Shown piece by piece: positions 1,736 through 37,347 of a stretch of 64,000 nt of DNA. The position numbers and the translations under genes were made by a program. Location: assembly GCA_001795735.1 (NCBI GenBank), contig MGKQ01000017.1, positions 3,326-67,325 on the forward strand, given 5' to 3'. Origin of the DNA: Candidatus Yanofskybacteria bacterium RIFCSPLOWO2_02_FULL_41_13 (GTDB lineage: Bacteria > Patescibacteriota > Minisyncoccia > 2-02-FULL-40-12 > GWA2-44-9). The notes below the pieces were generated by a model, which saw nothing but the letters and a program-made list of their open reading frames with translations, had not been told where the DNA came from and did no database searches. The stretch's first letter is position 1; each line of letters opens with the position of its first letter.

Positions 1736-3943
1736 CTACTTCCTGGTTCTATTATGATACCTTTGATGGACTTCTCTTAATTGTTTGTCCGTTACGTGGG
1801 TGTATATCTGGGTTGTTGTCACTGAGGCATGGCCAAGCATAGACTGGACTGAGCGGATATCAGCACCATTACGGAGAAGGTCTGTGGCATACGAATTATG
1901 AGAGATAAATCCATCTGTAATGAGATTGTGAGTCGAATCAATGCCAAAATCAAAAACTTGTTGTTCGTCAGTTTTTATATTGTTAATTTTTTTAACCTTA
2001 AGCCAGATGAGATTTGAATTATCAGCCAGACTCTCTAAAAGTCGGCCTACACTTGAGAAATTCTCACCTTTTTTAAAGGTTTTTAGGCCGAGGATTATTT
2101 TGGATAGTAGATTTCTTGTCGGTGCCAACCACCTATATCTTCGTAGGTACTTTATATTATATTTTTTTTCAAGATATTGATGGAATCCGCTTTTCTCGGG
2201 TAAAGAATCCAGGATTTGAGATATCAAAGTTTGAGCAGGAATCTTATCAGACTCTATTTTGTCAGCTTTTCCTTGATAGATTATATCTTTTTTCAAAGTT
2301 GGAATAAGTTTTTTAAACTTTTTTTGCCCTTCCCTATCAAGGACATGGAGGGTAAAAATTGTATTGGGAATGATTTTACCTTGAGGCAATTTTACCATAC
2401 GATTTCTTTCTAAAACATGACTATCTATACCGAGCCGTATTAATAGCATTTGCAGATCTTTTAGCAGTTCTTTGCTGGAGGAAAAAATTTTTATGGTGCC
2501 GCTGTTACCTTCGGCATCATATATCCCGGCTAGAAACTGTCTAATTTCTGGTTCCGTCGCTTGTAATAATTGAGGGGGGACTCTCTTGTATGGTCCGGTT
2601 CCAATTGGAATGTAATTTCTTAAAAAACTGACCATCTTTTTTGAATAAAAAATTAGCTTATAGGAATTGCTATCTCTCTTTACTAAAAAGGGTTTCTTAC
2701 CAAAGTTTTTTTCAAAAATATTACTATAAAATTTTAAAAAATCCTTATTCTTATCATATATTTTTACCCCACGAAAACGTTCGTTAATCACTCCATCACC
2801 CAGAATATACCCGATAAGTCTCCAAATCTCTGGTTTAAGAAACTTGCGCCCGATCATTTTGATTTCTTTTACCCCAGCAAGATAAGTTCCTAGTTTAATA
2901 TCCTTAGCTTCTATTTCATCAATACCGCCGGTATTTATTGTAAATAGACGGTGTTTGGGTGTGCAAATAAGTTCGTGGCCATCAGCTCGAATTCTAATCA
3001 ACTTATTTTCCATATGACTAAATTTCTGTACCACTTTTTTATCCCTCAATAGACCCCTTTCAAAATCCATGCTTTTGGCGAAGGTGTTGCGGTTTTTGAA
3101 AAGAGTAAGGGCCGAGCAGATCTCCTTATCTAGAAAAATCCTTGTTTCTCTATGCAGACAATGTCTCAATGTATGAGGACTTATTTTTTTACCCATTATC
3201 CCGGCTTTTATTGAATATTTTTTAATAATTCTCTGGATGCTTCTTGGGGTCAGGCGCAAGTTGTCATCTTTTGAAAATGTCTTGCTCTTTGGGATTCTAA
3301 TGAACAGGGCCTCGTCGACATCAGAACGTTTGGATATATACTCATTTATTCTTTTTTTGGCATCCTCCGAAAGAAAAACAAGCCTTATCTTACCGCCCTT
3401 GCCCCTGATCGATAGCTCTCCCCTCTTAACGTCTATTTCCCCCCGATTAAGCGAGCACAGTTCGGATACACGCATACCGGTACTGAAAAGAGTTACGAGA
3501 ATTGCTCTGTCCCTCATCACATCAAGATTCATTCCTTCTGGGGCATCAAAAAGACGCTGAATTTCATCCAGCTCAAGAAATGTCACTTCCCTATCCTCCT
3601 GCTTGCCTAGCTCTATTCTCTCAGCCGGAACAGTTTTTATCCCGACTTTTACTAAATACTTTAAAAAATTACGCAAAGCAATTACATGATAATTCTGGGT
3701 TATTTTCTTAAGCGGCCGGCCTTTTGAATCGCGCAGACGATTTAAATTTAAACGGTACTGGCGGATTAAGTCTTCGTTTAGCTGGCCTATGGTTTTTATC
3801 TTAGCAAAAGCCAGAAACCTATCTAAATACCGCCCATAGTTCTCAAGGGTCTTTAAAGACTTGTTCTTCTCTATCTCCAGATATTCCAGATATCTTATTT
3901 TTAAATCTTTAATGTCCGACATATTTGGGGCCTGCTCCGTCAC
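1736..3943 (-). CDS. tyrosine site-specific recombinase, XerC/XerD-like, with an in-frame intein
   Basis: The N-terminal core-binding domain and the catalytic motifs are present: '[23 protein letters not shown]', 'HTLRH' and '[34 protein letters not shown]'. The two extein halves total about 313 aa, which is typical Xer size. The intein begins 'HTLRH|C' and ends 'HN|S'. Confidence 0.8.
1895..3160 (-). mobile_element. intein, about 422 aa, with a LAGLIDADG homing-endonuclease domain, inside the recombinase
   Basis: Starts with Cys (codon 3158-3160, minus strand) right after HTLRH. Block B reads 'TPKHRLF'. The LAGLIDADG motifs are '[11 protein letters not shown]' and '[10 protein letters not shown]'. 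It ends 'FISHN' followed by Ser (1892-1894). Confidence 0.75.
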
Positions 3944-4130
3944 TCAACAAGCGCCTCATCAAAGGCGACCCGAATAAGTGTATTTTAAAAAATAATTTGA
4001 GTTGCGAATACCGAACTATAACCCGAGATAGGTGACAAGGAGTCCTGCGCTTGTTGTAGTGCGGGGTCGCATAATAATTATAGCAGGTTCTGTTGTAAAA
4101 GTAAGTAGTTTATGTTACAATTCTGATGTT

Positions 4131-4394
4131 ATGTTAACTCCACAGCAAAAGGCTAAAATACTAAATAACTTCAGGGTTCATGATAAAGATACAGGCTCTC
4201 CCGAAGCCCAGATTGCTTTGTTTACTGAAGAGATCGAAAAACTGACGAAACATCTCAAAAAACATGGCAAAGATAACAGTTCCCGTGTCGGCCTTTTGAA
4301 AATGGTTGCCAAAAGAAAAAGACTGCTCGACTATCTGAAAAGGGGGGACGCCAAAAGATACAGTTCTCTAGTGAAGAAGCTTGGCCTTAAATGA
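4131..4394 (+). CDS. rpsO: 30S ribosomal protein S15
   Basis: The sequence 'MLTPQQKAKILNNFRVHDKDTGSPEAQIALFTEEIEKLTKHLKKHGKDNSSRVGLLKMV' is 88 aa. The track ORF extends upstream, but the S15 N-terminus fixes the start. Confidence 0.9.
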   Translation: MLTPQQKAKILNNFRVHDKDTGSPEAQIALFTEEIEKLTKHLKKHGKDNSSRVGLLKMVAKRKRLLDYLKRGDAKRYSSLVKKLGLK

Positions 4395-4790: not shown

Positions 4791-5338
4791 TGACAAATAA
4801 AAAAATCACAATTCCTCAAAGAAAGAACCATCGAGTCGGAGTTTTCGTTGATGTCCAGAATATGTATCATTCGGCAAAGAACCTCTACGGAGCAAGGGTT
4901 AACTTTAAAGAGCTGCTCAGGATTGCCGTAGCTAACAGGGAGCTCGTGAGAGCCGTGGCCTATGTGGTTAAATCCGACACCGAAGAAGAGAAGGCCTTTT
5001 TTGATGCCCTCGAAAAAGCCGGATTTGAACTAAAAATCAAAGACCTGCAGATATTCCCGGGCGGCATGAAAAAGGGTGATTGGGATGTCGGTCTGGCAAT
5101 TGACGCCATAGGCATGTCCAAACAGTTGGATGTAGTGGTTATAGTGTCAGGAGACGGCGATTTTGAGCCATTAATCAGCTATTTAAAGCATGGCGGATTG
5201 ATAGTCGAGACTGTCGGTTTCAGGAGAAGTACAAGCTCAAAATCAATTGAAGTAGCCAATAACTTTTTTGACTTAGATGAGATTTACGATAAAGTACTAA
5301 TGGTGGGCAAAAAGCATTTTAATAAGTATAGGAAATAA
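4787..5338 (+). CDS. NYN-domain (LabA-like) protein
   Basis: 'VGVFVDVQN' and 'VVVIVSGDGDF' match a NYN/LabA nuclease-like domain. Confidence 0.6.
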   Translation: MMTNKKITIPQRKNHRVGVFVDVQNMYHSAKNLYGARVNFKELLRIAVANRELVRAVAYVVKSDTEEEKAFFDALEKAGFELKIKDLQIFPGGMKKGDWDVGLAIDAIGMSKQLDVVVIVSGDGDFEPLISYLKHGGLIVETVGFRRSTSSKSIEVANNFFDLDEIYDKVLMVGKKHFNKYRK

Positions 5339-5387
5339 TTCATAGATAATTCGGGGCAGATCGAGAAACAAGGTAGTCGGGGTTTTC

Positions 5388-5423
5388 CCCAGCCCTAGTT
5401 TTTTTTAAAAAACTAGGGCTGGG
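5388..5423 (+). promoter_or_regulatory. near-perfect 17-bp-stem hairpin (cccagccctagtttttt / aaaaaactagggctggg) between the NYN gene and pnp
   Basis: The palindrome was read directly. Its position upstream of pnp recalls the RNase III-processed pnp leader, or it may be a bidirectional terminator. Confidence 0.5.
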
Positions 5424-5467
5424 AAGAATCTCGTTACTCGTCTGGCCTGGTTATTTACCTGATCTAA

Positions 5468-7567
5468 ATGCCTATTAAAAGGTATGAGGAAGAGTTCGCG
5501 GGAAAACTGCTGAAAGTTGAAATTGGCCGGTTAGCCAACCTGGCTAACGGCTCGGTCTATGTTCAGTACGGAAATACGGCTGTTCTTGTAACGGCGGTAA
5601 TGTCTTCGTCGACAAAATCGGTAGATTATATGCCTCTTTCGGTTGACTACGAAGAAAGATATTATGCCGCCGGAAAAATTAAAGGTTCAAAATGGATGAA
5701 AAGAGAAGGTCGGCCTTCGGATGAGGCAATTCTAAGCGGACGCCTGATTGATCGGTCTTTGCGTCCTCGATTTGATCATCGAATACGCAATGATATTCAA
5801 ATCGTAGCAACGGTGCTGTCTTTTGACGGACAAAACGATCCAGATATGCCGGCATTATTTGGCGCATCTCTAGCCTTAACGATATCGGATATTCCCTTTA
5901 ACGGCCCGGTGGCAAGTACCCGAATCGGACGGATTGAAGGCAAATTAGTTTTCAATCCCACCTATGAAGAACGGCTAAAAAGCGACTTTGACATTGTCGC
6001 CGCCGGAACTTCCAACCGGATAAATATGATCGAAGCCGGAGCTTCAATAGTGGCTGAAAAAGACATTGCCGAAGCAATTGTTTCTGGCTTTAAAGAATTT
6101 CAAAAACTCATCAAATTTCAGGAGGTTATCTCCGGTGATTTAAAACCCAAAAAACGACAGCTTGCTTTAGCCGAAACGGACAAAGAACTTGCCAAGGCGG
6201 TTAAAGACTTTTCAGCTTCAAGCCTTGAAAAAGCAATTTATACCAAGAATAAGCAGGAGTATGTCGAAAATATGGCCAAAGCGAAGGAAGACCTATCGCA
6301 ACGCATAAAAGACTTGTTTAAAGATACTTCCAATATTGATGCAAAGCTCAAAGAAGCTGTCCACTTGTTCGACGAGGAGATCAATGATGTTGTTCATGAG
6401 AATATTCTGGCGTCCGAAAAAAGACCCGACTTCAGAAAATTAGATGAAGTAAGAGAACTGGCCGTAGACTGCGGCGTTCTCCCCCATTCTCATGGTTCAG
6501 GATTGTTTCAGCGCGGAACAACCCAGGTTCTTTCCACCTTAACCCTGGCTTCTCCGGGTATGGAACAGTGGGTAGAAACAATGGAAATAGAGCTTACTAA
6601 AAAAAGATTTATGCATCATTACATATTCCCACCATTTAGCGTCGGCGAAGTTGGCCGAATCGGAGGTACTGGACGGCGCGATATCGGTCACGGAGCCTTA
6701 GCTGAGAGAGCTCTGTCGCCTGTTATTCCCCCGAAAGATTCTTTTCCCTACACAATTCGTATGGTTTCCGAAACGCTGGCCTCCAATGGGTCATCTTCGA
6801 TGGCTTCGGTCTGCGGTTCATCTCTGGCTTTGATGGACGGTGGCGTACCAGTTTCTTCAGCTGTAGCCGGCATTGCCATGGGGGTTATGTTCGATAAGGA
6901 AGGTCAAAATTATAAAGTTTTAACCGACATTCAGGGTCCCGAAGACCATCATGGCGATATGGATTTCAAAGTTGCCGGAACCAAAGATGGCATCACTGCC
7001 ATGCAGATGGATGTTAAAGTTGAAGGAATCACCGGTGAAGTTCTTGAAAAAGCCCTCCTTCAAGCCCAAAAAGCCCGGCTGGAAATCCTCGGAAAAATGA
7101 ATTCCAAAATTGCCCAGCCCAGACCCGATCTTTCGCCTCTAGCCCCCCGAGTTCAGACCATCAAAATAGATCCCGAAAAAATAGGGGCGGTTATCGGCAA
7201 AGGCGGTGAAATAATCAACAAAATTATCGAAGAAACTGGCGCAGAAATTGATATTGAAGACGATGGGTCAATTTTTATTACCTGCATATCGGCCGAGGGA
7301 ATGAAGAAGGCTATTTCTATGATTGAAGAGCTCACCTATGAGGTAAGGCCGGAAGACGAGTTTGATGGCAGAGTTGTTAGCATTAGGGACTTCGGGGCTT
7401 TTATTGAGATCATGCCGGGAAAGGATGGTATGGTTCACATCTCAGAGATAAGCGATGAGAGAGTAAAAAGCGTTTCGGATGTTCTAAAGATGGGCCAAAA
7501 AGTTCACGTTCGGGTTAAGGGTGTTGATGAGATGGGCAGGATAAGTTTAACTATGAGAAAGAAGTAA
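5468..7567 (+). CDS. pnp: polynucleotide phosphorylase
   Basis: 699 aa. Two RNase PH domains and C-terminal KH plus S1 domains are present ('GEIINKIIEETGAEIDIEDDG', 'GRVVSIRDFGAFIEI'). Confidence 0.95.
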   Translation: MPIKRYEEEFAGKLLKVEIGRLANLANGSVYVQYGNTAVLVTAVMSSSTKSVDYMPLSVDYEERYYAAGKIKGSKWMKREGRPSDEAILSGRLIDRSLRPRFDHRIRNDIQIVATVLSFDGQNDPDMPALFGASLALTISDIPFNGPVASTRIGRIEGKLVFNPTYEERLKSDFDIVAAGTSNRINMIEAGASIVAEKDIAEAIVSGFKEFQKLIKFQEVISGDLKPKKRQLALAETDKELAKAVKDFSASSLEKAIYTKNKQEYVENMAKAKEDLSQRIKDLFKDTSNIDAKLKEAVHLFDEEINDVVHENILASEKRPDFRKLDEVRELAVDCGVLPHSHGSGLFQRGTTQVLSTLTLASPGMEQWVETMEIELTKKRFMHHYIFPPFSVGEVGRIGGTGRRDIGHGALAERALSPVIPPKDSFPYTIRMVSETLASNGSSSMASVCGSSLALMDGGVPVSSAVAGIAMGVMFDKEGQNYKVLTDIQGPEDHHGDMDFKVAGTKDGITAMQMDVKVEGITGEVLEKALLQAQKARLEILGKMNSKIAQPRPDLSPLAPRVQTIKIDPEKIGAVIGKGGEIINKIIEETGAEIDIEDDGSIFITCISAEGMKKAISMIEELTYEVRPEDEFDGRVVSIRDFGAFIEIMPGKDGMVHISEISDERVKSVSDVLKMGQKVHVRVKGVDEMGRISLTMRKK

Positions 7568-13972: not shown

Positions 13973-14001
13973 TTTACAAAAAGGTAGAAAGGTGATATAA
14001 T
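13973..14001 (+). promoter_or_regulatory. sigma70-like promoter: TTTACA, 17 nt spacer, TATAAT
   Basis: Read directly. It lies about 70 nt upstream of the GC-rich gene at 14070. Confidence 0.55.
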
Positions 14002-14069
14002 GTATATACACAGTCGAGACAGATCTTCGACAATTTTCGCCCCTTGAACGGGGCAGAGGAGAAGACAAA

Positions 14070-14864
14070 ATGAGGAGCATTCTTTCGTTTTTCGTCGTCG
14101 TCGCAACTCTGGCCACGGCCATTCCGGCTGAGGCTCAACAGAGTCCGCTCGTAACCTTGATGGCCGAAAGGATCATCAACAGTTCCAGCGGCATATACGG
14201 CGGTGGCTACTACGGCCCGCGCCTCGGTCGCAACTATGGGGGTTACTACCAGATCGAGCTGGCCATGGTTGTAGACTTTCTCAAAATGCCTGGAGTGCTG
14301 AACGCATGTACGCTGAGCACGAGCGTCTCCAACCCGGAGAAGCAAGTGGCGATGAACTGCCACATCATCATGAGAAGCTCACCGGAGAGCGTCCAGGCCC
14401 AGCTTGGGAACTTCCCGGAATCGGATCTACTCGGAACGCAGCACCCAGAAGCCGGAGTAATGCACATCCGTGCATATGATCCGACGCACAAGCCGTTCAA
14501 CAGAAACCACAAGGATTGCATACCTGTTGAATCACGCGCAATTCAGCCGGCACCGATGCCGACGGCAGAGGTGGCAACACCACTTCCGACACCACAAACC
14601 GTTCCGGTCAAGAGGATCGATCCAGAGGAGGAGATGTCTTGGAATACGGTCAACACTACCGACTTCACAGCGGTGGTCGTTGATCCGAACACGGGAAGGA
14701 AGGAACTGATCTCAGCAATGAGCTCAGCCAGCCTTTCAACTCCGACCGGTTCGAAACCGTACGTGGTAACGTTGCTTGTGCCGGGACGAGGCAACATCGA
14801 CAAGGTTCCCGGCGAGATTCGTCCCAGCAAAGACCTACAGGGCTGGGAAATCGTAGCCCGATAA
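14070..14864 (+). CDS. secreted hypothetical protein, Gly/Tyr-rich, on high-GC island 2
   Basis: Signal peptide 'MRSILSFFVVVATLATAIPAEA'. Carries 'GGGYYGPRLGRNYGGYY' and a PT-rich linker. SD GAGGAG. Composition is far richer in GC than the flanks. Confidence 0.6.
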   Translation: MRSILSFFVVVATLATAIPAEAQQSPLVTLMAERIINSSSGIYGGGYYGPRLGRNYGGYYQIELAMVVDFLKMPGVLNACTLSTSVSNPEKQVAMNCHIIMRSSPESVQAQLGNFPESDLLGTQHPEAGVMHIRAYDPTHKPFNRNHKDCIPVESRAIQPAPMPTAEVATPLPTPQTVPVKRIDPEEEMSWNTVNTTDFTAVVVDPNTGRKELISAMSSASLSTPTGSKPYVVTLLVPGRGNIDKVPGEIRPSKDLQGWEIVAR

Positions 14865-14875
14865 AGGAGATTGAC

Positions 14876-15517
14876 ATGGAACGAATACTGAGAAGGATCG
14901 GATTCTTCTCCTCGGCGGACCAAAATCCGCCGACGGCAACTTGTAATCAACCTGAGGCACCGGGTCCGAACCCGATGCCTCAGCCGACACCACGCCAGGC
15001 AAGGACGAGAAATCGTCCACCGACACGCCTAGCGTACACACGTCATGCCTCAGCAGGCGACGGCGACGACGTGATTGTCAACCCAGCATGGAATCAGTTC
15101 AAAACAGCCATGGTCTGGATTGGGGGCATCGCCGTTCTTGCCTGGATCTTCGGCGGCGGATACCTAGCTGGCCGACCATCGATGGTTAGCCAGCAAACAC
15201 AACAAGTCGTCACCAATCACGCTCAAGTGCCGACTGCGACTCAGCAGACGGCCTTAGAGCAAGGAGCAGTGATGACAACGGAAACGATCAAGGAGGCATT
15301 GACCGAAGCAGGAGAAATCCTGTCGGCCACCAACGTAGTTCGTGGTCAGGTGAAGGAGATGGCTCAGGCCGAGCTCCCACCGACGCCACCCTCGCCTCCG
15401 CCTTCGGTCGAAAAACCGAATGCGGAACCGCCGCCCGCTCCACCCACCCTCACTGATGCCCAACAGCGCAACGAGGCGTTGAAACAACGCCTTCGAGAAC
15501 GCTACGACATCAAGTAG
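14876..15517 (+). CDS. hypothetical membrane-anchored protein, Pro-rich, on high-GC island 2
   Basis: One TM segment 'MVWIGGIAVLAWIFGGGYLAG'. SD AAGGAG. Translationally coupled to the previous gene. Confidence 0.55.
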   Translation: MERILRRIGFFSSADQNPPTATCNQPEAPGPNPMPQPTPRQARTRNRPPTRLAYTRHASAGDGDDVIVNPAWNQFKTAMVWIGGIAVLAWIFGGGYLAGRPSMVSQQTQQVVTNHAQVPTATQQTALEQGAVMTTETIKEALTEAGEILSATNVVRGQVKEMAQAELPPTPPSPPPSVEKPNAEPPPAPPTLTDAQQRNEALKQRLRERYDIK

Positions 15518-15523
15518 GTTCCA

Positions 15524-15580
15524 AGCTCGTACCTTCCAACCCAGTTCATCTGGGCCATCGGAAGGACGAGCTTTTTTCTT
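15524..15580 (+). terminator. intrinsic terminator closing island 2
   Basis: Stem agctcgtaccttcc / ggaaggacgagct followed by TTTTTTCTT. Confidence 0.55.
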
Positions 15581-15788
15581 TATCTTGAGCCCACCGAAAG
15601 AATTGAAAAAATTCCCACAAACTGTAGACTATAATCAATAGATTTGAGCTAAGTTCGAGGCAGAATCGAGTATTGATTCGAGGCGTAGTAGGACTACGGC
15701 GAGAATCAAGCGGAGATTTTAACGAAGAAATTAGCCAAACCTGAAAGGTGTGCCGCTGGCCTAAAATTCATATTAGGCCCGGCATATA

Positions 15789-22224: not shown

Positions 22225-24294
22225 ATGTCGCAAAAAGCTACACCGATTTCTGGTCATGAAAACCTGCTATTCCATCTAAAAGAAGTGACTGAGGGTAAGA
22301 GGAAATTTGAAACGGCTGCCAGGGGCATATCCAGAATGATTCTTGAAAAAAGAATTGAGAAAAAAACCAGAGCTGGAAAGACCGTGTATGATTATGAATT
22401 TTTCCGTCAGGGGTCAAAACATATTATTGGATGGTATGATGAGATTAACGATTTTGTTCACTTCGTAAAAGATGCGGCTGAAGGCGGATCTGCCAAAGAG
22501 AACGCTTTTGTTCTGGTAGGAGAGCCTGGAAATGGCAAGACTTTTTTCGTAGATTTCATTTGCGCAAAATATAGACAATTTTTGTCTAGATCAGAAAATC
22601 ATAAATACACTTTTAAATTTACAGGATTAGATAAAACGCTTAACTACCATAAAAATGTTGCGGAGCTTCATTCTCTAACGTTTGAGGATCCGATGATTCT
22701 GGCCATGAATCTTTACGGCGGCAACGATAAATCAAAAGGTTTTATTGCCGAACAAGGTTTCGGAGATAATCAGATAGATCTTCTATACAATGACTATCGT
22801 TCGCTAGGTGCATCCACAGAATACTTATGGCACAAACTTCTTGCATACTTTAACGGGGATACCCTAAAAGCACTCGAGCAAGTACAGGTTATTCCGGTTC
22901 CAGTTCAAGAAAGTCTGGGTACTATAACCGGTAAATACTCCGCTAAAGATAAAATTACATCTTCGTCTGTTGATCTTCTTGGAGAGGAATCTCTTCAGCT
23001 TATTTTGTTGCTTCCGCCGGGAGATCCAAATAAGTTTGATCTGCGTCGAGGAGCCTTGGCTCGCGTTGCCGGTTCAGGAATACACTTTGCCGATGAAATG
23101 TTTAAAAACAAAACGGATCTTGTTAAAATTTATCTTCAGGTTATTCAGAATAGAAATATAGAACTGGATGGGTTTATTTGGCCCATCGACACCATGATTA
23201 TCGCAACTTCAAACAACTGGGAGTATAACCGCTTTGTTTCCGAGAAGGAAGAATCTCCGATAAAAGACAGGTGCCGAATTTGCTATGTGGGTCATAATAC
23301 CGACTACAAGCTTCAGCAAGAGCTTACAAGATATTCTCTGGGCAGTCAGAAAAAAACAACCGTTCTTGGAAAAAACATGCATGAGGATCCCAATCTTAAT
23401 TACGCTATTTCCGTAGGAATGGCCCTAACTCGCCTTCCTTACTCGGAGAAGCTTACCCCGATTGAAACCATGAAGCTTGAAGCCGGTGAAACGGCTGGCG
23501 AGAAAGGAATTAAAACCTTATCAGAAGTTAAAGATGTCGCAAATGCTAACTCGGATGTTACCAAAAGATGGGGCCAAAAAGGTTTAGGTCATCGTGATGA
23601 GGGCCGAGTTTTGCAGATATTGGCGACTATGTCTGAAAGCAATGAAGGGGAGTGCCTCTTTGCTAAAGATGTTTTTCGGGCCATGGAAAGAGTGATCTTG
23701 GATTACGTTACCGAATCCGCAGACAGGGATAAGTACCTCAAGGATATAAAAATTGCCAAACAATTATACCGTGAACAGGTGAAAAAAACCATCTTTAACG
23801 CTTATCGAGATGATGAAAATGCTATCCGTAAGGACGTTATGTCTTACATTAACATGATTATTGCCGTGGGTGCCGAGAATCTAGGCCCGGACATGATCTG
23901 GACATATATAGATCGCCAAACTCTTAAAACTACATCAATCAAGATTGATACAAGTTTTGTTAACAGCGTAGAAGCGAGACTGGGTCTTTCTAATAATGAA
24001 AGACAAGAGTCGTATCGAAATATGATTAGAAAAATCTTTGGGCAAAAAGCAGTATCAGATCCCAATTATGATTTTATGGATAACCACGAACTGGTAAATG
24101 CAGTAACTCAGGTTAGGTTAGAGTCAGATGTCGCTGGGGCAGGTAGTCTGGTCGGAGCTTTAGCGAATAGAACCAACGAAGAGAATGTTAAGATTTATAA
24201 CAGAATGATAGAAACTATGAAGAAGCTGGGATATTGCACTACATGTGCTCATAAAACAATTGAGTACTTCTGCGAGAAAGATGATGAAAGCTAG
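22225..24294 (+). CDS. prkA: PrkA-family AAA+ serine protein kinase-like protein (YeaG-like)
   Basis: Walker A 'VLVGEPGNGKTFFVDF' lies at about residue 100. Size (689 aa) and architecture fit PrkA. Confidence 0.7.
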   Translation: MSQKATPISGHENLLFHLKEVTEGKRKFETAARGISRMILEKRIEKKTRAGKTVYDYEFFRQGSKHIIGWYDEINDFVHFVKDAAEGGSAKENAFVLVGEPGNGKTFFVDFICAKYRQFLSRSENHKYTFKFTGLDKTLNYHKNVAELHSLTFEDPMILAMNLYGGNDKSKGFIAEQGFGDNQIDLLYNDYRSLGASTEYLWHKLLAYFNGDTLKALEQVQVIPVPVQESLGTITGKYSAKDKITSSSVDLLGEESLQLILLLPPGDPNKFDLRRGALARVAGSGIHFADEMFKNKTDLVKIYLQVIQNRNIELDGFIWPIDTMIIATSNNWEYNRFVSEKEESPIKDRCRICYVGHNTDYKLQQELTRYSLGSQKKTTVLGKNMHEDPNLNYAISVGMALTRLPYSEKLTPIETMKLEAGETAGEKGIKTLSEVKDVANANSDVTKRWGQKGLGHRDEGRVLQILATMSESNEGECLFAKDVFRAMERVILDYVTESADRDKYLKDIKIAKQLYREQVKKTIFNAYRDDENAIRKDVMSYINMIIAVGAENLGPDMIWTYIDRQTLKTTSIKIDTSFVNSVEARLGLSNNERQESYRNMIRKIFGQKAVSDPNYDFMDNHELVNAVTQVRLESDVAGAGSLVGALANRTNEENVKIYNRMIETMKKLGYCTTCAHKTIEYFCEKDDES

Positions 24295-25599: not shown

Positions 25600-27309
25600 A
25601 TGGAGCTAATAAGTCAAAAAACCAAGGAAATAATGGAAGAATGCAAGAAGCGAGCTTTATCTGCCGGATTGAGTTTTAAAGGAGAAAGCCTGGAGTATAT
25701 AGTAACTAATCAAGGCTTCCTTGAGCTTAGTCCAAAAGTAATGATTCCGACACTGTATGATTTCTGGGCTGATGACGTAGAAATTGTAAGAAATAAGTGG
25801 CTTTACAACGTTTATCCGCACAACCCCTATGAAACGGTTATCAATACAAGGCCTCCCATGTCATTTTACAATGATAATAATCCAGACTGGCTTAATGTAA
25901 TGATATTTTACCATGTTCTAGGCCACATAGATTTCTTTCAGAATAATGTTTTTTTTAGAAATACATGGAATGATGATTTTTGCGGCCAAGCCTTAGCTGA
26001 TAAGCGCCTGATCAACCGAATTCGCGAAGAGATGGGTGACAAAAAAAGATGGGTGGATTATGTAATTGAATTTGCCAGAGGTATCGATAACCTAGTTGGT
26101 TACTACGGTGAACTTGGAGAAGATGACAAGTCTGTATCAGGGAATGTGCTAGGGACACTTTCGGAGAGAATAAGATTTTACTTCGGGGAATTTCTTAAAA
26201 ATCATTATGAGAGCAAGACAGTTCCGATTAAATTCTACTACGACGAAATAAGCCGTCTCAATTTGTCTCAAGAACAGTTTGGTCAAAAGGTCGGAGAAGA
26301 GGTTTTTTTTGATGACCCGTTTCTAAAAAGCAAGTTCCCGGAGTTTAAGAACGCTTTTGAAAAAAAAGACAAGAAAAATAAATTAAAACCGAAAGATATA
26401 CTTCAGTATCTTGTAGAAAATTCAGACTTCATAAATAAGGACGAAAATAAGTGGATGAAGGATATCCTTGGAATAGTAAGAAGGACGTCGTTATATTTCC
26501 AGCCCCAGATAAGAACTAAAAATTCACATGAAGGCTGGGCAAGTCTTTGGCACGAAAGATTGTTTGTAGCTGACCCCAGGATTAAATCTCACGAGGTTGG
26601 TTTTGCCCTGACTAATTCCAAGGTTGTAGTTGATCCGCCTGGCGGAATCGGACTTAATCCGTATATAGGATTCAAGCGTCTTTACGAATTTATCGAAGGG
26701 ATGGCTATGAAAGGAAAACTTTCTGCCGAATATCAATTGCTGGAAGATGCGGAAGCCAGAAAAAACTTTGATAAAAAGCTTGGAGAAGACGCCGGGAAAA
26801 ATACTCTGCTAGAGATAAGAAAGAACCTCAACGACTCCATGTTGGTTAATTTTCTTTCCGACGATGACTTTCAGGATTTTGTTGATAAACACAATCTTTT
26901 TGTGGCCGGACGCCGACTTAACCCGGACAAATTGGTTATCGAAATATATATTAAGTCGCGTAGCGGAAGGGAATATAGAAAAATGCTTAATGACAGCTTA
27001 TACCACCCGCCAAGTATATTAATCAATGAGGATAAGTCCAGGGAAGGAGAGCTTTATCTCGATCATGTATTCGAAGGCAGAACTTTAGTTACAGAATATA
27101 TTCCTGCCGTGTTAATGGGCTTGTCGTATCTTGCCGGAAATACAATTAGCCTAGAAACAACTGAATTTGATATCGAAAGAGAAGAGAGAGAAAATTTACT
27201 TTTTGATCCGGAGTATACGCCTTATTATAAAAGATTTCGAGTTCGTTACACCTGCAAAGATAAGGTCATAGAAAAAACCATGCTTTCCGCAGATGAGATA
27301 GGGGGGTAA
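25600..27309 (+). CDS. spoVR: SpoVR-family protein (YcgB-like)
   Basis: 'YHVLGHIDFFQNNVFF' and 'HEGWASLWHERL' are conserved SpoVR-type signatures. Confidence 0.7.
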   Translation: MELISQKTKEIMEECKKRALSAGLSFKGESLEYIVTNQGFLELSPKVMIPTLYDFWADDVEIVRNKWLYNVYPHNPYETVINTRPPMSFYNDNNPDWLNVMIFYHVLGHIDFFQNNVFFRNTWNDDFCGQALADKRLINRIREEMGDKKRWVDYVIEFARGIDNLVGYYGELGEDDKSVSGNVLGTLSERIRFYFGEFLKNHYESKTVPIKFYYDEISRLNLSQEQFGQKVGEEVFFDDPFLKSKFPEFKNAFEKKDKKNKLKPKDILQYLVENSDFINKDENKWMKDILGIVRRTSLYFQPQIRTKNSHEGWASLWHERLFVADPRIKSHEVGFALTNSKVVVDPPGGIGLNPYIGFKRLYEFIEGMAMKGKLSAEYQLLEDAEARKNFDKKLGEDAGKNTLLEIRKNLNDSMLVNFLSDDDFQDFVDKHNLFVAGRRLNPDKLVIEIYIKSRSGREYRKMLNDSLYHPPSILINEDKSREGELYLDHVFEGRTLVTEYIPAVLMGLSYLAGNTISLETTEFDIEREERENLLFDPEYTPYYKRFRVRYTCKDKVIEKTMLSADEIGG

Positions 27310-27312
27310 TCT

Positions 27313-29538
27313 ATGGGCAAACACGAAACTTTAAAAAGTTTTTATTCCGAAGATACGGCCGAACAAAGGAACAAGACAAAGCTTGCCTTAGAATCTCTTA
27401 AAAGTAGTGTCGAGGGTAAGGAAAAAAGATTAATCCTTGATTTCGAAGATTATCTTGAAATAGCGCGAAAAGAGCCTCGCAGGGTTTTTAGAAATATTTT
27501 CCAACTGTTTTCTGACATGGTAACTAGTTATGTCGGTGAGGGAGAAGATGAATACCCGAATGACCCTGAGAGTATCGGTTTCGTAAAATATAATTGTTCA
27601 AAAATTTTTGAGCAAAGATCCGACAACCCGTTCTTTGCCGATAGATTGTTTGCAAATAGATTTATAGGGCAAATGCGTCTGTTAAAACAGGGGTCTCAAC
27701 AAAATCGGATATACATATACGAAGGTCCACAAGGATGCGGTAAGAGTACGTTCTTAAATAACCTTCTCCGTACATTCGAAGAATACACTGACACCGAAGA
27801 GGGAAGGACCTTTGAAATTTTTTGGGACATTAAGCTGGACGGAAAAGAAGTAAAAGTTTCTTGTCCAAGCCATGACAATCCGATACTCCTCATCCCTAAG
27901 AGCTATCGAATCTCTTTTCTTGACAACCTGCTTTCACCGGAGAAATTAACAGAATTAGATTACCAGCTTACTCATGAAAAAGAATATGAGTGGTTATTTA
28001 AAAATGAGGCTTGCACTATTTGCAAATCTCTTTTCAGGGCGTTGATTGATAAGGTCGGTTCTCTAGATGCAGTCTTAAAAATGGTTAAGGTGCGTTATTA
28101 CAAGTTTGACCGGAGGTTAGGAGAGGGGATTAGTGTTTTTAATCCCGGCGATAAACCGATGAAGGAAGCTTACTTAACTGACAAACAAATTCAGGAAAAA
28201 CTCGATGAAACTTTCGGAGCTAATCTTGTAAAATACGTATTTTCGCGTTACGCCAAAACGAATAATGGCATCTATGTTTTAACCGATATAAAATCACACA
28301 ATAAAGACCGGCTTTTAGAACTTCATAATGTTATTTCTGAGGGCGTGCACAAGGTCAATGGAATAATAGAAGAAAGTATAAGTTCCCTTTTTATTGCTCT
28401 AATGAACCCGGAGGACAAAAAGAGTATAGAAGATGAGAAGGTCGGATCACTGCAGGGGAGAATAAGATATACAAAAATATCCTATGTGCTGGATGTACCA
28501 ACTGAGGTTAAAATATATCATAGTATATTCGGGGACCAAATCAATTCTTATTTTCTTCCCGGGGTGTTAGAAAACTTTGCAAGAATAATAATTTCTTCGA
28601 GAATGAACTCAGAGTCTAAGCCACTTCAAGAATGGATTCCCGATGTTAAAAAATATAAAAAGTACTGTGATGAATCCGGCTTGCTTTTAAGGATGGAGAT
28701 TTACAGCGGAGTAATTCCAGCGTGGTTGTCCGAAGAAGATAAAAAGGGATTAACAGCTAAATTCCGACGCAGACTTATTGCTCAAGGCGAACAAGAAGGA
28801 GAAGGCGGTTTTTCGGTCAGAGATTCAATAAGATTTTTTGGCGAATTCGTTAACCGTTATTGCGGTAAAACAAGTTTGGCAAACATGCGCAATGTTTCCG
28901 ACTATTTTAAAAAGGTTTTAAGCAGAGAGCAGAGAAATCAGAATATACCGCCGAAATTTATTGATTCAGTTGTAGATTGGTACAACTATACGGTTCTCAG
29001 CCAGATAAAAGAATCCCTTTATCTCTATGATAAAAAGCAGATATCGGAGAATATTCTAAATTATCTTTATGCGATTAATTATGATGTCGGCAACAAAGTG
29101 AGATGTAATTGGACTCAGCAAGATTTCGAAGTGACCCTGGAATTGTTAAAAACAACAGGCTCTTACTTTGTGGGTAAAGAGCTGGACGATAGAAACACTC
29201 TTAATTTAGCAAGAAGCCTTCAGCTAAAGTATGTTGAAGTTATTGCTCAAGGAAAAGAAAGTAAAATAGTAGAAACGGAACTGTATTGTAATTTGTTCGA
29301 TTCCTATATCAGACATCTTAAAGAAAGGACTTTCGAGCCGTTCTTAAAGAATAATAACTTCAAAGACATCGTATCATCTTTCGGAACCAAAGAGTTTGAG
29401 ACATTTGATACTCGCCTGAAGCTGCATGTTTCCCACATGATTAAAAACTTGATAGAGAAATTTAACTATACCGAGAGGGGTGCCAAAGAAATTTGTTTGT
29501 ATGCAGTAGATCAAAGTTTGGTTGAAAAGTTCTCTTAA
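27313..29538 (+). CDS. second PrkA-like AAA+ protein (paralog)
   Basis: Walker A 'YIYEGPQGCGKSTFLNNLL' lies at about residue 130. 741 aa with PrkA-like organisation. Confidence 0.55.
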   Translation: MGKHETLKSFYSEDTAEQRNKTKLALESLKSSVEGKEKRLILDFEDYLEIARKEPRRVFRNIFQLFSDMVTSYVGEGEDEYPNDPESIGFVKYNCSKIFEQRSDNPFFADRLFANRFIGQMRLLKQGSQQNRIYIYEGPQGCGKSTFLNNLLRTFEEYTDTEEGRTFEIFWDIKLDGKEVKVSCPSHDNPILLIPKSYRISFLDNLLSPEKLTELDYQLTHEKEYEWLFKNEACTICKSLFRALIDKVGSLDAVLKMVKVRYYKFDRRLGEGISVFNPGDKPMKEAYLTDKQIQEKLDETFGANLVKYVFSRYAKTNNGIYVLTDIKSHNKDRLLELHNVISEGVHKVNGIIEESISSLFIALMNPEDKKSIEDEKVGSLQGRIRYTKISYVLDVPTEVKIYHSIFGDQINSYFLPGVLENFARIIISSRMNSESKPLQEWIPDVKKYKKYCDESGLLLRMEIYSGVIPAWLSEEDKKGLTAKFRRRLIAQGEQEGEGGFSVRDSIRFFGEFVNRYCGKTSLANMRNVSDYFKKVLSREQRNQNIPPKFIDSVVDWYNYTVLSQIKESLYLYDKKQISENILNYLYAINYDVGNKVRCNWTQQDFEVTLELLKTTGSYFVGKELDDRNTLNLARSLQLKYVEVIAQGKESKIVETELYCNLFDSYIRHLKERTFEPFLKNNNFKDIVSSFGTKEFETFDTRLKLHVSHMIKNLIEKFNYTERGAKEICLYAVDQSLVEKFS

Positions 29539-34893: not shown

Positions 34894-37347
34894 CTACTCA
34901 AAGTGGGTCAGCTTCTGGAATGACTCTAGTTTATCCCTAAGGAGAGGATAGTTATTAAGCGATGGATCTTTTTTGAGAAGTAGGCGAGCCTCGGCGCGGG
35001 CTTTTTTAATTAAATCTATATTGGCAAGCGAAGCCATACCGAGGTCAGGCATTCCAGATTGTTTAACCCCGAAGAATTCTCCCGGCCCTCGTATTTTCAT
35101 ATCTTTCTCGGCCAGTTCAAAACCATCATCACACTCAACTAAGGCTTTCAGTCTTTGATTTATTGATTTATCTCCCGAAGAAGAGAAAAGAATACAGTGA
35201 GATTGGTGCTCTCCTCGTCCTACTCGCCCCCTGAACTGATGAAGCTGGGCCAAGCCGAACCTTTCGGCGCTTTCGATCGCCATAATAGTTGCATTTGGGA
35301 TATCTATGCCGACTTCAATTACTGACGTAGAGACAAGAATATCAAATTCTTTATTTTTAAATTTACCCATTATTTCATTCTTAACTTTTGGTTTTAATTT
35401 ACCGTGAAGCATAGCAACTCTCAGATCCGGAAATACAAGTTCCGATAATTTTTTATATTCTTCCTCAACGGCCTTAACTTCCTGCCAAAGAATATTCATC
35501 TTGCTTTGCGGAGAACCGGTTTTTATCTCTTTCTTGGGATCGCTTAGTTCTATCCTGGGGCAGACGACAAATACCTGCCGGCCGTCTCTAACTTCATCTC
35601 TTATGAACTGATATGTTTCTTTCTTCTGGGTGGGCGTGATCACTTTAGTAATTATTTTTTGTCTGTTTTTTGGTTTTTCTTTTATCAGGGATATATCTAA
35701 ATCTCCGTATATAGTAAGGGCCAGGGTACGGGGGATAGGGGTGGCAGTCATACTCAGCAAGTGAGGTACCACTTGCTGAGAATTTCCAATTTCTCCCGAT
35801 TCGCTTTCGCGAATCGCGGATCCTCGATTGCGAAGCAATCGGGACAATTTCCAATTTCCAATATTTGAGATTTCTGATTTTGAATTTGTAATTTGCTTAG
35901 GATTTGGTTTTTGTAGTTCGGAGTTTTTAAGCAGTGCCTTGCGCTGATTAATTCCAAAGCGATGCTGTTCATCAATTACCACCATCGCCAATTTATCAAA
36001 TGAAACATCTTTCTGGATAATGGCATGAGTACCGATTATAATTTGAACCTGCCCCGAAGCAATCTTTTCCTTGATAATTTTTTTAGATACCGACTGTCCG
36101 TTTAACTTAGCTTCCGAGCCTATCAGTAATCCGATATTTATTTCGTTTTCTAAACTTTGAGAGCTTTGATGTTTGATTTGATTGGAAATTGGAAATTGTC
36201 CCGATTGCTTCGCAATCGAGGATCCGCGATTCGCGAAAGCGAATCGGGAGAAATTGGAAATTAACGATGTAATCGTTCGATAATGCTGTTGAGCCAGAAC
36301 TTCAGTTGGTACCATAAAAACAGTCTGGTAACCCCCCTTGGCAATCTGATAGGAGGCAGTTAGGGCAACCACAGTTTTACCGCTTCCGACGTCTCCTTCC
36401 ATTAACCTGTTCATCGGATAACTTTTTTGAAGGTCTTTGAGAATCTCCCATAAGGAAACCTTCTGATCAATGGTCAGCTCAAATGGCAGACGGCCTATGA
36501 AATCCTGAATCAGTGCCTGATCGAAAGGTACTGAAATTGATTTAAGCTGATTTATTTTCCTTCTCTCAAGAAGAGCTTTTATCTGAAAGAGTAGGAGGTC
36601 TTCAAAAGCAAATCTTTCTCTGGCCGAATCGGCATCTTTTAAATTTTTCGGATAATGGATATCTGAAAGAGCCTCAGATATTCTCGGGAAGCTGTACTTA
36701 TCCAAAATCGTCTGAGGTAGCGGCTCGTCGGCTTTTATGTTCTTGAGAAGCGGCTTGATTAAAAATCTGAGATATTTTGAAGTTATTCCTTCGGTCTCAG
36801 GATAAACTGGCACGAGACCGGAGGTGTGTTTCAAGCTAGAATTTTGAATTTTGAATTTTGAATTTTGAATTTCACCTTCTTGATTCAGAACCCTTAATTC
36901 ATTACCCATCATTCTCTCATATGTTGGACTGGAGAGGTATAGGCCGTGTTTATTCAAGTTAGCCTTTCCAGCAAGGCTAACCATAGCACCCTCAACTAGC
37001 TGATTTTCAATATATGGCTGATTAAACCAGACAACTTTGATCGCTCCGCTGGAATCACCGACAATGGCGTTAGTAACGGTCAGTCGGCGGGGGAATATCC
37101 TTTTACTTGAGATCTTTAAAACTTCCCCCTGAACATTTACTTTTTGACCAGGTTCTACCTGATTTATAGGCATTACTTCGCTATAATCTTCATAGCGAAC
37201 TGGGAAATGCCAGAGAAGATCTCTTATGGTTTTAATTCCTAATCTATTGAGACGCGAAAGATTCCGCGAACCGACATTTTTAAGTTTTTCGATCGGAAAC
37301 AATAGGTTATCCATAGAGATAATAACGAAGTCCTGTATCTGGGGCAT
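34894..37347 (-). CDS. recG: ATP-dependent DNA helicase RecG, carrying two in-frame repeat-element insertions
   Basis: Wedge/OB N-terminus. Helicase motifs 'GDVGSGKTVVAL', 'DEQHRFG', 'LSMTATPIPRTLA', 'MLHGKL' and 'QFRGRVGRG'. Extra peptides are encoded by elements at 35781-35863 and 36181-36262. Confidence 0.9.
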   Translation of the reverse strand: MPQIQDFVIISMDNLLFPIEKLKNVGSRNLSRLNRLGIKTIRDLLWHFPVRYEDYSEVMPINQVEPGQKVNVQGEVLKISSKRIFPRRLTVTNAIVGDSSGAIKVVWFNQPYIENQLVEGAMVSLAGKANLNKHGLYLSSPTYERMMGNELRVLNQEGEIQNSKFKIQNSSLKHTSGLVPVYPETEGITSKYLRFLIKPLLKNIKADEPLPQTILDKYSFPRISEALSDIHYPKNLKDADSARERFAFEDLLLFQIKALLERRKINQLKSISVPFDQALIQDFIGRLPFELTIDQKVSLWEILKDLQKSYPMNRLMEGDVGSGKTVVALTASYQIAKGGYQTVFMVPTEVLAQQHYRTITSLISNFSRFAFANRGSSIAKQSGQFPISNQIKHQSSQSLENEINIGLLIGSEAKLNGQSVSKKIIKEKIASGQVQIIIGTHAIIQKDVSFDKLAMVVIDEQHRFGINQRKALLKNSELQKPNPKQITNSKSEISNIGNWKLSRLLRNRGSAIRESESGEIGNSQQVVPHLLSMTATPIPRTLALTIYGDLDISLIKEKPKNRQKIITKVITPTQKKETYQFIRDEVRDGRQVFVVCPRIELSDPKKEIKTGSPQSKMNILWQEVKAVEEEYKKLSELVFPDLRVAMLHGKLKPKVKNEIMGKFKNKEFDILVSTSVIEVGIDIPNATIMAIESAERFGLAQLHQFRGRVGRGEHQSHCILFSSSGDKSINQRLKALVECDDGFELAEKDMKIRGPGEFFGVKQSGMPDLGMASLANIDLIKKARAEARLLLKKDPSLNNYPLLRDKLESFQKLTHFE
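35781..35863. repeat. palindromic MITE/RPE-like element, copy A, inside recG
   Basis: 'aatttccaatttctcccgattcgctttcgcgaatcgcggatcctcgattgcgaagcaatcgggacaatttccaatttccaat'. It has terminal inverted repeats and the internal hairpin cgattcgc-tttc-gcgaatcg. Confidence 0.75.
36181..36262. repeat. palindromic MITE/RPE-like element, copy B, inside recG
   Basis: Near-exact reverse complement of copy A, about 320 bp away. recG stays open through both copies. Confidence 0.75.

Follow-up and report, generated by a model that had tools for sequence, protein, structure and literature searches.

In the main text and tables of their survey, Novikova et al. (2015) report that inteins are biased to DNA-binding enzymes of replication, recombination and repair and to the most conserved catalytic motifs; 77% of the bacterial intein hosts bind ATP, and tyrosine recombinases appear neither in the top-15 tables of bacterial and archaeal hosts nor in the mobilome table (PMC4760082). 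In the candidate phyla radiation (CPR), LAGLIDADG homing endonucleases have been described as passengers of rRNA introns (PMC11270868). Here, we analyze a gene for a Xer-type tyrosine recombinase that is interrupted by a 422-residue insert. It resides on a stretch of 64,000 nucleotides, in the following referred to as the window, from Candidatus Yanofskybacteria bacterium RIFCSPLOWO2_02_FULL_41_13 (contig MGKQ01000017.1, positions 3,326 to 67,325). Our observations make it likely that the insert is an active homing class 1 intein in a chromosomal xer gene of a Yanofskybacteria-related CPR bacterium.

The interrupted recombinase gene and its insert

A single open reading frame (ORF) of 735 codons, identified from the ORF list and its translation, spans window positions 1736 to 3943 on the minus strand, with the stop codon at 1736-1738, and Pfam and NCBIfam profiles identify it as the precursor gene of an intein-interrupted Xer-type tyrosine recombinase. 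The frame opens with GTG at 3943 and offers an alternative ATG at 3922; either start is possible, and a public protein that is 100% identical (P0001, 728 residues) has been called from the ATG. The precursor falls into a 261-residue N-extein, the 422-residue intein and a 52-residue C-extein, the joined exteins amounting to 313 residues. The intein is situated between His261 and Ser684, one residue past the catalytic Arg260: the N-extein ends with ISPHTLRH, the insert runs from CLHRETRIF to DGFISHN and the C-extein starts with SYATDLL. The coordinates and lengths given for ORF and insert in an earlier note on this DNA (1736-3943, 1895-3160, 422 and 313 residues) are exactly matched by the translation, and the intein signature listed there is present, with Cys in position 1, TPKH in block B, two LAGLIDADG motifs and a terminal His-Asn followed by Ser.

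With the whole ORF as query, Pfam recognizes Phage_integrase in two stretches, Intein_splicing at 2.6e-19 (PF14890, 70 bits with the cut-off at 35.8) and LAGLIDADG_3 at 4.6e-16, again in two stretches. Deletion of the insert in silico leaves a single Phage_integrase stretch that covers profile positions 2-171 of 172 at 1.2e-44. Both terminal intein models of NCBIfam exceed their cut-offs (intein_Nterm, TIGR01445, 26.9 over 24.5; intein_Cterm, TIGR01443, 18.7 over 15.6), and blocks A, B, F and G are all found. Among the sequences of solved structures, the insert matches PI-PfuI (1DQ3) at 3.4e-11 in phmmer and several mini-inteins at its two ends. An AlphaFold2 model built from 59 homologues reaches a mean predicted local distance difference test score (pLDDT) of 82.6, with values around 90 across the intein and below 50 in the C-extein, which is left undocked in the precursor model. 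In Foldseek searches against the PDB, the best intein match of this model is TliVMA (7QSS; E 2e-24, template modelling (TM) score 0.70 on the target); further matches are PI-PfuI (1DQ3), PI-TkoII (2CW7), PI-SceI and 1EF0, and the endonuclease core matches I-DmoI with TM scores of 0.63-0.69 on the target, in line with the alpha-beta-beta-alpha-beta-beta-alpha pseudo-dimer fold of two-motif LAGLIDADG enzymes.

All features given below lie on the minus strand, and residue conservation refers to the same 59-sequence alignment unless stated otherwise. The N-extein (residues 1-261, positions 3161-3943) comprises a SAM-like core-binding domain (Phage_int_SAM_1, 17-99) and most of the catalytic domain (Phage_integrase, 122-262). 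It holds Arg158, the beta-hairpin Lys182 and the His257-x-x-Arg260-His261 motif; the HTLRH box with the second catalytic arginine (3161-3175), placed by the translation and by homologue junctions, directly precedes the intein. The intein itself (residues 262-683, 1895-3160) consists of a HINT domain into which a LAGLIDADG domain and a helical region are inserted, as delineated by PF14890, PF14528, TIGR01445, TIGR01443, AlphaFold2 and Foldseek. Block A (CLHRETRIF, 3134-3160) supplies the invariant position-1 nucleophile Cys262, and block B (2942-2971) contains the T-x-x-H element TPKH with invariant His331, which is His70 in intein numbering. The first LAGLIDADG motif, LIGYILGDG (2792-2818), carries the catalytic acidic residue Asp383, conserved in at least 90% of the sequences and flanked by invariant Gly382 and Gly384. 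The second (2507-2536) carries Glu478, also conserved in at least 90%, amid invariant Tyr475, Asp476, Ala477 and Gly479. When 12 diverse inteins are compared, G121-D122-G123 and D215-A216-E217-G218 (intein numbering) are invariant. Block F (1910-1957) has invariant Asp665 and Gly678, with Phe666, Thr676 and Asp677 conserved in at least 90%, and block G (FISHN, 1895-1909) ends with invariant Ser681, penultimate His682 and terminal Asn683. In the C-extein (residues 684-735, 1739-1894), the Phage_integrase profile resumes (137-171); this part provides the +1 residue Ser684 as well as invariant His705 and the invariant nucleophile Tyr714 (TTQIYTH). The base composition of the intein (GC 0.347, third-position GC 0.315) differs from that of the exteins (GC 0.41-0.46, third-position GC 0.43-0.47), the GC content of the window being 0.405.

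The splicing residues Cys262, His331, His682-Asn683 and Ser684 are invariant. On the N-terminal side, the junction reads HxxRH↓C in 115 of 115 full-length homologues (arrows mark the extein-intein boundary or the insertion site), and the C-terminal junction is SHN↓S(F/Y)AT in 113 of them, with SNN↓S and THN↓S in the other two. With 115 independent full-length homologues sharing these junctions, the signature goes far beyond what chance would produce. The insert is thus classified, on its conserved residues, profile matches and predicted fold, as a canonical class 1 bifunctional intein, i.e. a HINT domain carrying a two-motif LAGLIDADG homing endonuclease. The proposal of the earlier note that a LAGLIDADG intein splits a Xer-type recombinase at its HxLRH box is supported by profiles, matches to solved structures, predicted fold and uninterrupted orthologues.

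Two other identities were considered for the insert. A bacterial intein-like or Hedgehog-type HINT domain is ruled out by the His-Asn↓Ser junction at the C-terminus together with the embedded homing endonuclease, and an assembly artefact by the occurrence of the same architecture in more than 100 independent assemblies. In two Nomurabacteria loci (L027 and L073) and in the representative P0244, a +1 Cys replaces Ser (SHN↓CFATDLL), so that the nucleophile at the splice junction is not constant in a single intein allele.

The joined exteins align contiguously with tyrosine recombinases, unbroken over the junction, as the earlier note had predicted. Among solved structures they match XerA (5HXY, 2.4e-38), Pyrococcus Xer (4A8E) and Escherichia coli XerD (1A0P), and in Foldseek the exteins of the model match XerA, XerD, IntI4 and lambda Int. 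The catalytic residues Arg158, Lys182, His257, Arg260, His261, His705 and Tyr714 are invariant. In NCBIfam, the joined exteins exceed the XerA_Arch cut-off (228.1 over 220 bits) and stay below those for XerD (242 against 329.6) and XerC (241.8 against 335). The recombinase may be the chromosome-dimer resolvase of the cell. Neither a dif site nor an FtsK partner was identified within the 64-kb window, where the dif core CATAA-N6-TTATG, a crude pattern, is matched three times with at most one mismatch compared to 3.4 matches expected. A second Xer protein or a further intein was likewise not found in the window with custom hidden Markov models (HMMs) in six frames and with Pfam on ten large ORFs.

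The intein divides the catalytic residues, with Arg-I, Lys, His-II and Arg-II residing on the N-extein and His-III and the Tyr nucleophile on the C-extein. Since the nucleophile is thereby separated from the other catalytic residues, recombinase activity should depend on splicing; the unspliced precursor should be inactive, given that by established tyrosine-recombinase chemistry its active site would not assemble. Splicing would follow the established steps of class 1 intein chemistry. Translation would yield the 735-residue precursor with its split active site, in which an N-S acyl shift at Cys262 would be succeeded by trans-esterification onto Ser684, cyclisation of Asn683 assisted by His682 and an O-N shift. 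The predicted products are a 313-residue recombinase with a restored HTLRH-SYATDLL segment and a free 422-residue intein.

Distribution, empty alleles and probable mobility of the intein

A search with the full ORF against 5.8 billion proteins gave 293 matches. All 120 of those listed have the same domain set, and their names include Yanofsky-, Woese-, Nomura-, Azam-, Brenner- and Wolfebacteria, Kazan and 'Patescibacteria group'; several carry the JGI label 'site-specific recombinase XerD/intein/homing endonuclease'. At least 115 full-length protein clusters have the intein at the identical site. With the intein alone as query, HMMER was run exhaustively on 1.84 billion cluster representatives and retrieved 33 clusters at E<=1e-30; scores fall sharply where the hosts cease to be recombinases, the next relatives (25-32% identity) residing in archaeal MCM, RadA, aRF1 and a radical-SAM protein. 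In GTDB, with one genome scanned for each species, 76 loci were identified. In about 66 of these species, a complete or contig-truncated intein is present in Xer at the same site, the inteins being 36-78% identical; most of the species are Patescibacteria, including one with a complete Roizmanbacteria chromosome (CP066689.1, locus L062). The earlier note had called such a host unusual, and this holds for the literature searched but not for the databases, as the combination is common in Patescibacteria and is even labelled automatically by JGI.

Two observations on individual records may be added. In locus L054 (2176-4402), the reading frame of the Xer intein is disrupted around intein residue 321 and resumes in another ORF, as a result of either decay of the intein or a frameshift introduced by sequencing. 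Nine loci (L017, L019, L020, L023, L029, L035, L060, L064 and L069) are titled Gammaproteobacteria, Pseudomonadales or Nevskiaceae. Their N-exteins score 300-340 bits on the CPR HMM and their exteins resemble those of Woesebacteria/Microgenomates; the names of these metagenome-assembled genomes (MAGs) are therefore probably wrong.

The xer gene divergently adjoins rpsO for ribosomal protein S15 (positions 4131-4394, plus strand; Pfam Ribosomal_S15, residues 40-120 of ORF 4032-4394), a phosphoribosyltransferase (PRTase)-like gene, an NYN gene and pnp. The same S15-PRTase-NYN-PNPase neighbours flank an intein-less orthologue of 305 residues (P0121, 87% identical, loci L001-L004). An intein-bearing orthologue (P0002, locus L005) has S15, NYN and PNPase genes on the same side, with no PRTase gene called there. 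Nucleotide identity between the joined exteins and the empty allele amounts to 78%. Across the insertion site, the empty allele has the sequence CGC CAT↓AGT TTC (H↓S), and the intein-less orthologues of the syntenic locus show an unbroken HTLRH↓SFATDLL. The shared rpsO-pnp setting of filled and empty relatives identifies a single conserved locus with occupied and empty alleles. In L005, a gene for a HigB-like toxin and a small upstream ORF (5327-5811) lie between rpsO and xer; neither is present in the window or in L001.

Presence of the intein is patchy. The best 120 matches to the joined exteins are all intein-less, about 305 residues long and up to 87% identical. In a neighbour-joining tree of 236 exteins, the intein-less part of which consists of these 120 top matches to the query extein, no intein is present in the closest neighbours of the query beyond its identical twin, and a minimum of 12 changes between presence and absence is required. 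Divergence from the query is correlated for intein and extein (r = 0.80) with clear outliers such as P0018, in which the intein is 0.75 and the extein 0.51 identical to the query. Compared with L005, the ratio of nonsynonymous to synonymous substitutions (dN/dS) is 0.07 for the whole intein and 0.045 for the endonuclease domain, at a dS of about 1.3 for the intein and saturated synonymous sites in the extein. On these ratios, the endonuclease domain appears to be under strong purifying selection, which fits a functional homing endonuclease still cycling through populations and no relic. It is the combination of empty and filled alleles, patchy distribution, intein/extein discordance, the deviating third-position GC of the intein and low dN/dS that leads us to this reading. 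The free intein or the precursor would cut intein-less xer alleles at the DNA encoding the HxxRH↓S(F/Y)AT box, and repair from the occupied allele would copy the intein into the cut one. The predicted homing target has the consensus CCnCAYannnTnaGnCAY↓TCnTTYGCnACnGAY; an example of an intein-less site is CCTCATACATTGAGACAT↓TCGTATGCCACAGAC, and the site reconstituted from the exteins in the window is ATAAGTCCTCATACATTGAGACAT↓TCGTATGCCACAGACCTTCTCCGT.

Conservation of this kind may also be viewed from the side of the host. A domesticated intein could keep Xer switched off until needed through conditional splicing in response to redox state, DNA or temperature, with homing being vestigial. Precursor activity must indeed depend on splicing, with the intein located one residue from a catalytic arginine and the Tyr nucleophile cut off, and the AlphaFold2 precursor model has the C-extein undocked at a pLDDT below 50. 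The intein is furthermore kept in about 66 species over many CPR classes at low dN/dS. Purely regulatory inteins usually lose the acidic residues of the endonuclease, whereas here both are retained and the endonuclease domain is the best-conserved part of the intein (dN/dS 0.045). Neither is the intein fixed, as the closest relatives of the host gene lack it, and no sensor-like feature has been identified. Conditional splicing has been reported for inteins of recombination proteins, namely that of RadA (PMC8987985, PMC11409957), a precedent that favours a regulatory role. On balance, we regard such a role as improbable for the Xer intein, if worth bearing in mind.

A decaying HINT/LAGLIDADG remnant that no longer splices would turn the xer copy into a pseudogene or a gene of split function, with another recombinase being active in the cell. 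A second Xer could be encoded elsewhere, the visible sequence comprising the 64 kb of the window, in which none is present, and the broken intein ORF around residue 321 in L054 would agree with decay. In our gene, however, the reading frame is intact over 735 codons, all residues for the four splicing steps are invariant along with the catalytic residues of the exteins, the fold is predicted with confidence and the intein dN/dS of 0.07 indicates strong purifying selection. Decay is thus very unlikely in the case of the window, and active homing continues to be the favoured explanation.

The occurrence of the intein is not restricted to the Xer proteins of CPR bacteria. Six GTDB loci labelled Woesearchaeota, Nanoarchaeota, Pacearchaeota and, in one case, 'Chloroflexi', reach 496-547 bits with the intein HMM and low scores with the CPR-extein HMM. 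Their hosts score best as XerA_Arch, with 196-247 bits even while interrupted. The contig of locus L026 encodes L18e (97.9 over 85) and L13 of the archaeal/eukaryotic type (113.3 over 98.9) together with an S9 that scores best as archaeal; the classic archaeal order of these genes identifies the contig as archaeal. In L036 (JAFCCG010000006.1, labelled Chloroflexi), the intein host scores best as archaeal XerA (247 bits), and a neighbouring gene encodes a TRAM-domain protein resembling archaeal PyTRAM or the C-terminus of aIF2-beta; this contig may be archaeal and mis-binned.

In 1128 CPR-CPR pairs, mean identity is 0.507 for exteins and 0.403 for inteins, and the intein is more similar than the extein in 2% of the cases. 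For the 288 CPR-archaeal pairs, the respective means are 0.316 and 0.411, and the intein exceeds the extein in all of them (288/288, 100%). The fact that intein similarity surpasses host-gene similarity in every cross-domain pair suggests inter-domain transfer. Outgroup-rooted neighbour-joining analysis nests the archaeal inteins among those of the CPR in 185 of 200 bootstraps. Their strict monophyly is not supported (0/200): two archaeal groups are seen on a backbone of poor resolution, and we therefore claim no more than that they nest within the CPR radiation. Between the two domains, the target DNA is much alike when reconstituted; for instance, the 15 nucleotides upstream of the site are identical in the window and L026.

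Divergent tyrosine recombinases that are not Xer-like (P0252/L050 at L050:1817-3664, P0256-P0259, P0261-P0265 and P0288) also harbour related inteins, inserted at the same HxxRH↓S position; their junctions read, for example, CHPHTYRH↓C...SHN↓SFAINWIK and LRFHILRH↓C...SHN↓SRVTHLVE. These inteins branch at the base of the Xer-intein tree. As the HxxRH box is conserved superfamily-wide, it probably explains the spread to many CPR lineages, integrase paralogues and XerA of DPANN-type archaea. We lean, with some reserve, towards the view that a single intein family homes on the HxxRH↓S box and has crossed paralogue and domain boundaries, from CPR bacteria to DPANN-type archaea or in the reverse direction, and that it constitutes an undescribed allele in an ATP-free host superfamily. 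CPR and DPANN organisms are ultra-small and share habitats. If true, recent genetic exchange between the two would have left a clear trace at the sequence level in this distribution.

Several points weigh against an active homing intein and its passage between domains. The evidence for splicing and DNA cleavage consists of conserved residues, and the strong and broad conservation of the intein across CPR bacteria is also compatible with a benefit at the level of the host. Sampling of the 236 exteins is biased through its intein-less part, and the comparison of synonymous sites is close to saturation. Independent archaeal markers are available for one of the six 'archaeal' contigs, the assignment of the others resting on extein type and MAG labels, and some of the MAG labels in the intein-bearing set are clearly unreliable. 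Lastly, the neighbour-joining trees have a star-like backbone, so that number and direction of transfers are weakly resolved.

Chromosomal setting of the gene

The window is an ordinary chromosomal CPR segment with genes for S15, PNPase, PolA, Lon, RecG, leucyl-tRNA synthetase, IF-2 and three tRNAs. Directly downstream of xer, at about 900-1700, the GC content rises to 0.48-0.54 compared to the window mean of 0.405. This patch of about 0.8 kb contains two orphan ORFs (885-1127 and about 1168-1644, both on the plus strand) without Pfam or PHROG match, and Rfam at gathering thresholds finds no non-coding RNA in it, the three tRNAs being the only matches in the whole window. In the relatives L001 and L005, a gene for an M23 peptidase is located at the position of the patch and the GC-rich patch is absent. 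Judging from this comparison, something has been inserted or rearranged just downstream of xer, over about 0.8 kb only.

The arrangement bears on the possibility that the recombinase, instead of being a housekeeping Xer, serves as integrase to a mobile island represented by the GC-rich patch, with the intein travelling on that element. The 3' end of the gene is closely followed by the patch (GC about 0.50), relatives have the M23 peptidase gene instead, and related inteins occur in divergent integrase-like recombinases. Nevertheless, the rpsO-pnp neighbourhood is constant in relatives with and without the patch, the gene scores as XerC/XerD/XerA and not as phage integrase, and nothing in Pfam or PHROG matches the patch ORFs. 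Flanking direct repeats or a nearby tRNA were not seen, though not sought, and the nearest tRNA lies at 38 kb. Comparable GC-rich patches are moreover present at 14-15.5 kb and 58-60 kb of the window. We consequently assign the island scenario a very slim chance. Of the GC-atypical island at whose edge the earlier note had placed the recombinase, a small patch of 0.8 kb is confirmed, if weakly, while a link of the recombinase to it is not supported because rpsO-pnp synteny is kept where the patch is missing.

The region 14000-15600 (GC 0.50-0.55) also harbours two orphan ORFs lacking Pfam and PHROG matches, one of 264 residues with a signal-peptide-like N-terminus (14070-14864) and one of 213 residues that is Pro-rich with one hydrophobic segment (14876-15517). 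Between 22225 and 32181, a gene for a PrkA-like kinase (22225-24294) is followed by an ORF of 385 residues, a SpoVR-like gene (25600-27309), a second PrkA-like gene (27313-29538) and lon. By its gene content, this cluster is a PrkA/SpoVR module of the stress type, duplicated in a small CPR genome. In RecG (34894-37347, minus strand, 817 residues), the DEAD-box domain is matched as two separate stretches, which suggests that the helicase core carries an insertion; neither Pfam nor the intein HMM recognizes an intein there. Rfam at gathering thresholds matches nothing in the intergenic region between xer and rpsO (3944-4130, about 190 bp), of which the S15 leader is a part. S15 autoregulatory leaders known so far are lineage-specific, and an undescribed one could lie in this region.

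Comparison with described systems

No published intein in Xer or any other tyrosine recombinase was found by full-text literature search, although a low-count entry may be present in the supplementary tables of the 2015 survey (PMC4760082). The matches obtained were engineered split-intein recombinases or unrelated co-mentions. Since the sequences are public and partly annotated automatically, novelty lies in the description and not in the sequence itself. What we report is, as far as the sequence allows a judgement, a new host and insertion site within the textbook kind of bifunctional intein, the mechanism being unsurprising. The 2015 survey reportedly included essentially no CPR genomes, predating most of them.

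Tyrosine recombinases are hereby added as a host family to a list of intein hosts from whose main survey tables they are absent (PMC4760082). Furthermore, a probable chromosome-resolution enzyme should depend on splicing, and the same intein in CPR Xer, archaeal XerA and divergent integrases offers a concrete and testable case of a selfish element moving across domains, between members of the CPR and of DPANN. Practical use is conceivable for an intein-gated site-specific recombinase and for a new LAGLIDADG endonuclease with a predicted target in most tyrosine recombinase genes.

As for the host, the joined exteins resemble XerA as well as XerC/XerD in the full R-K-H-R-H-Y set and the two-domain layout, and align from end to end with XerA 5HXY and XerD 1A0P. 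They differ from XerC/XerD in scoring below both equivalog cut-offs and in the interruption of the gene by an intein. The position of the intein fits the surveyed bias, for which RecA/RadA, RecG, GyrA and DnaB are typical hosts, but most of the surveyed hosts are ATPases. Tyrosine recombinases use no ATP.

The LAGLIDADG enzymes of CPR rRNA introns (PMC11270868) belong to the same endonuclease family and the same host group and likewise address an extremely conserved target. They are, however, encoded by introns or insertion sequences, free-standing and removed at the RNA level, whereas the Xer intein would be removed at the level of the protein. The closest counterparts are TliVMA and PhoVMA (7QSS, 7QST), PI-PfuI (1DQ3), PI-TkoII (2CW7) and PI-SceI (1VDE/1LWS), which also combine a HINT domain, a two-motif LAGLIDADG domain and a helical DNA-binding region. 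Common to these archaeal inteins, PI-SceI and the Xer intein are the class 1 junction, from Cys1 to His-Asn↓Ser/Cys/Thr, and the insertion into a catalytic motif of an enzyme acting on nucleic acids or nucleotides. Foldseek relates the Xer intein to these structures with E values from 2e-24 to 5e-15, yet sequence identity is as low as 11-19%, and the hosts differ: the solved inteins reside in V-ATPase, ribonucleotide reductase or DNA polymerase and the Xer intein in a tyrosine recombinase of CPR bacteria.

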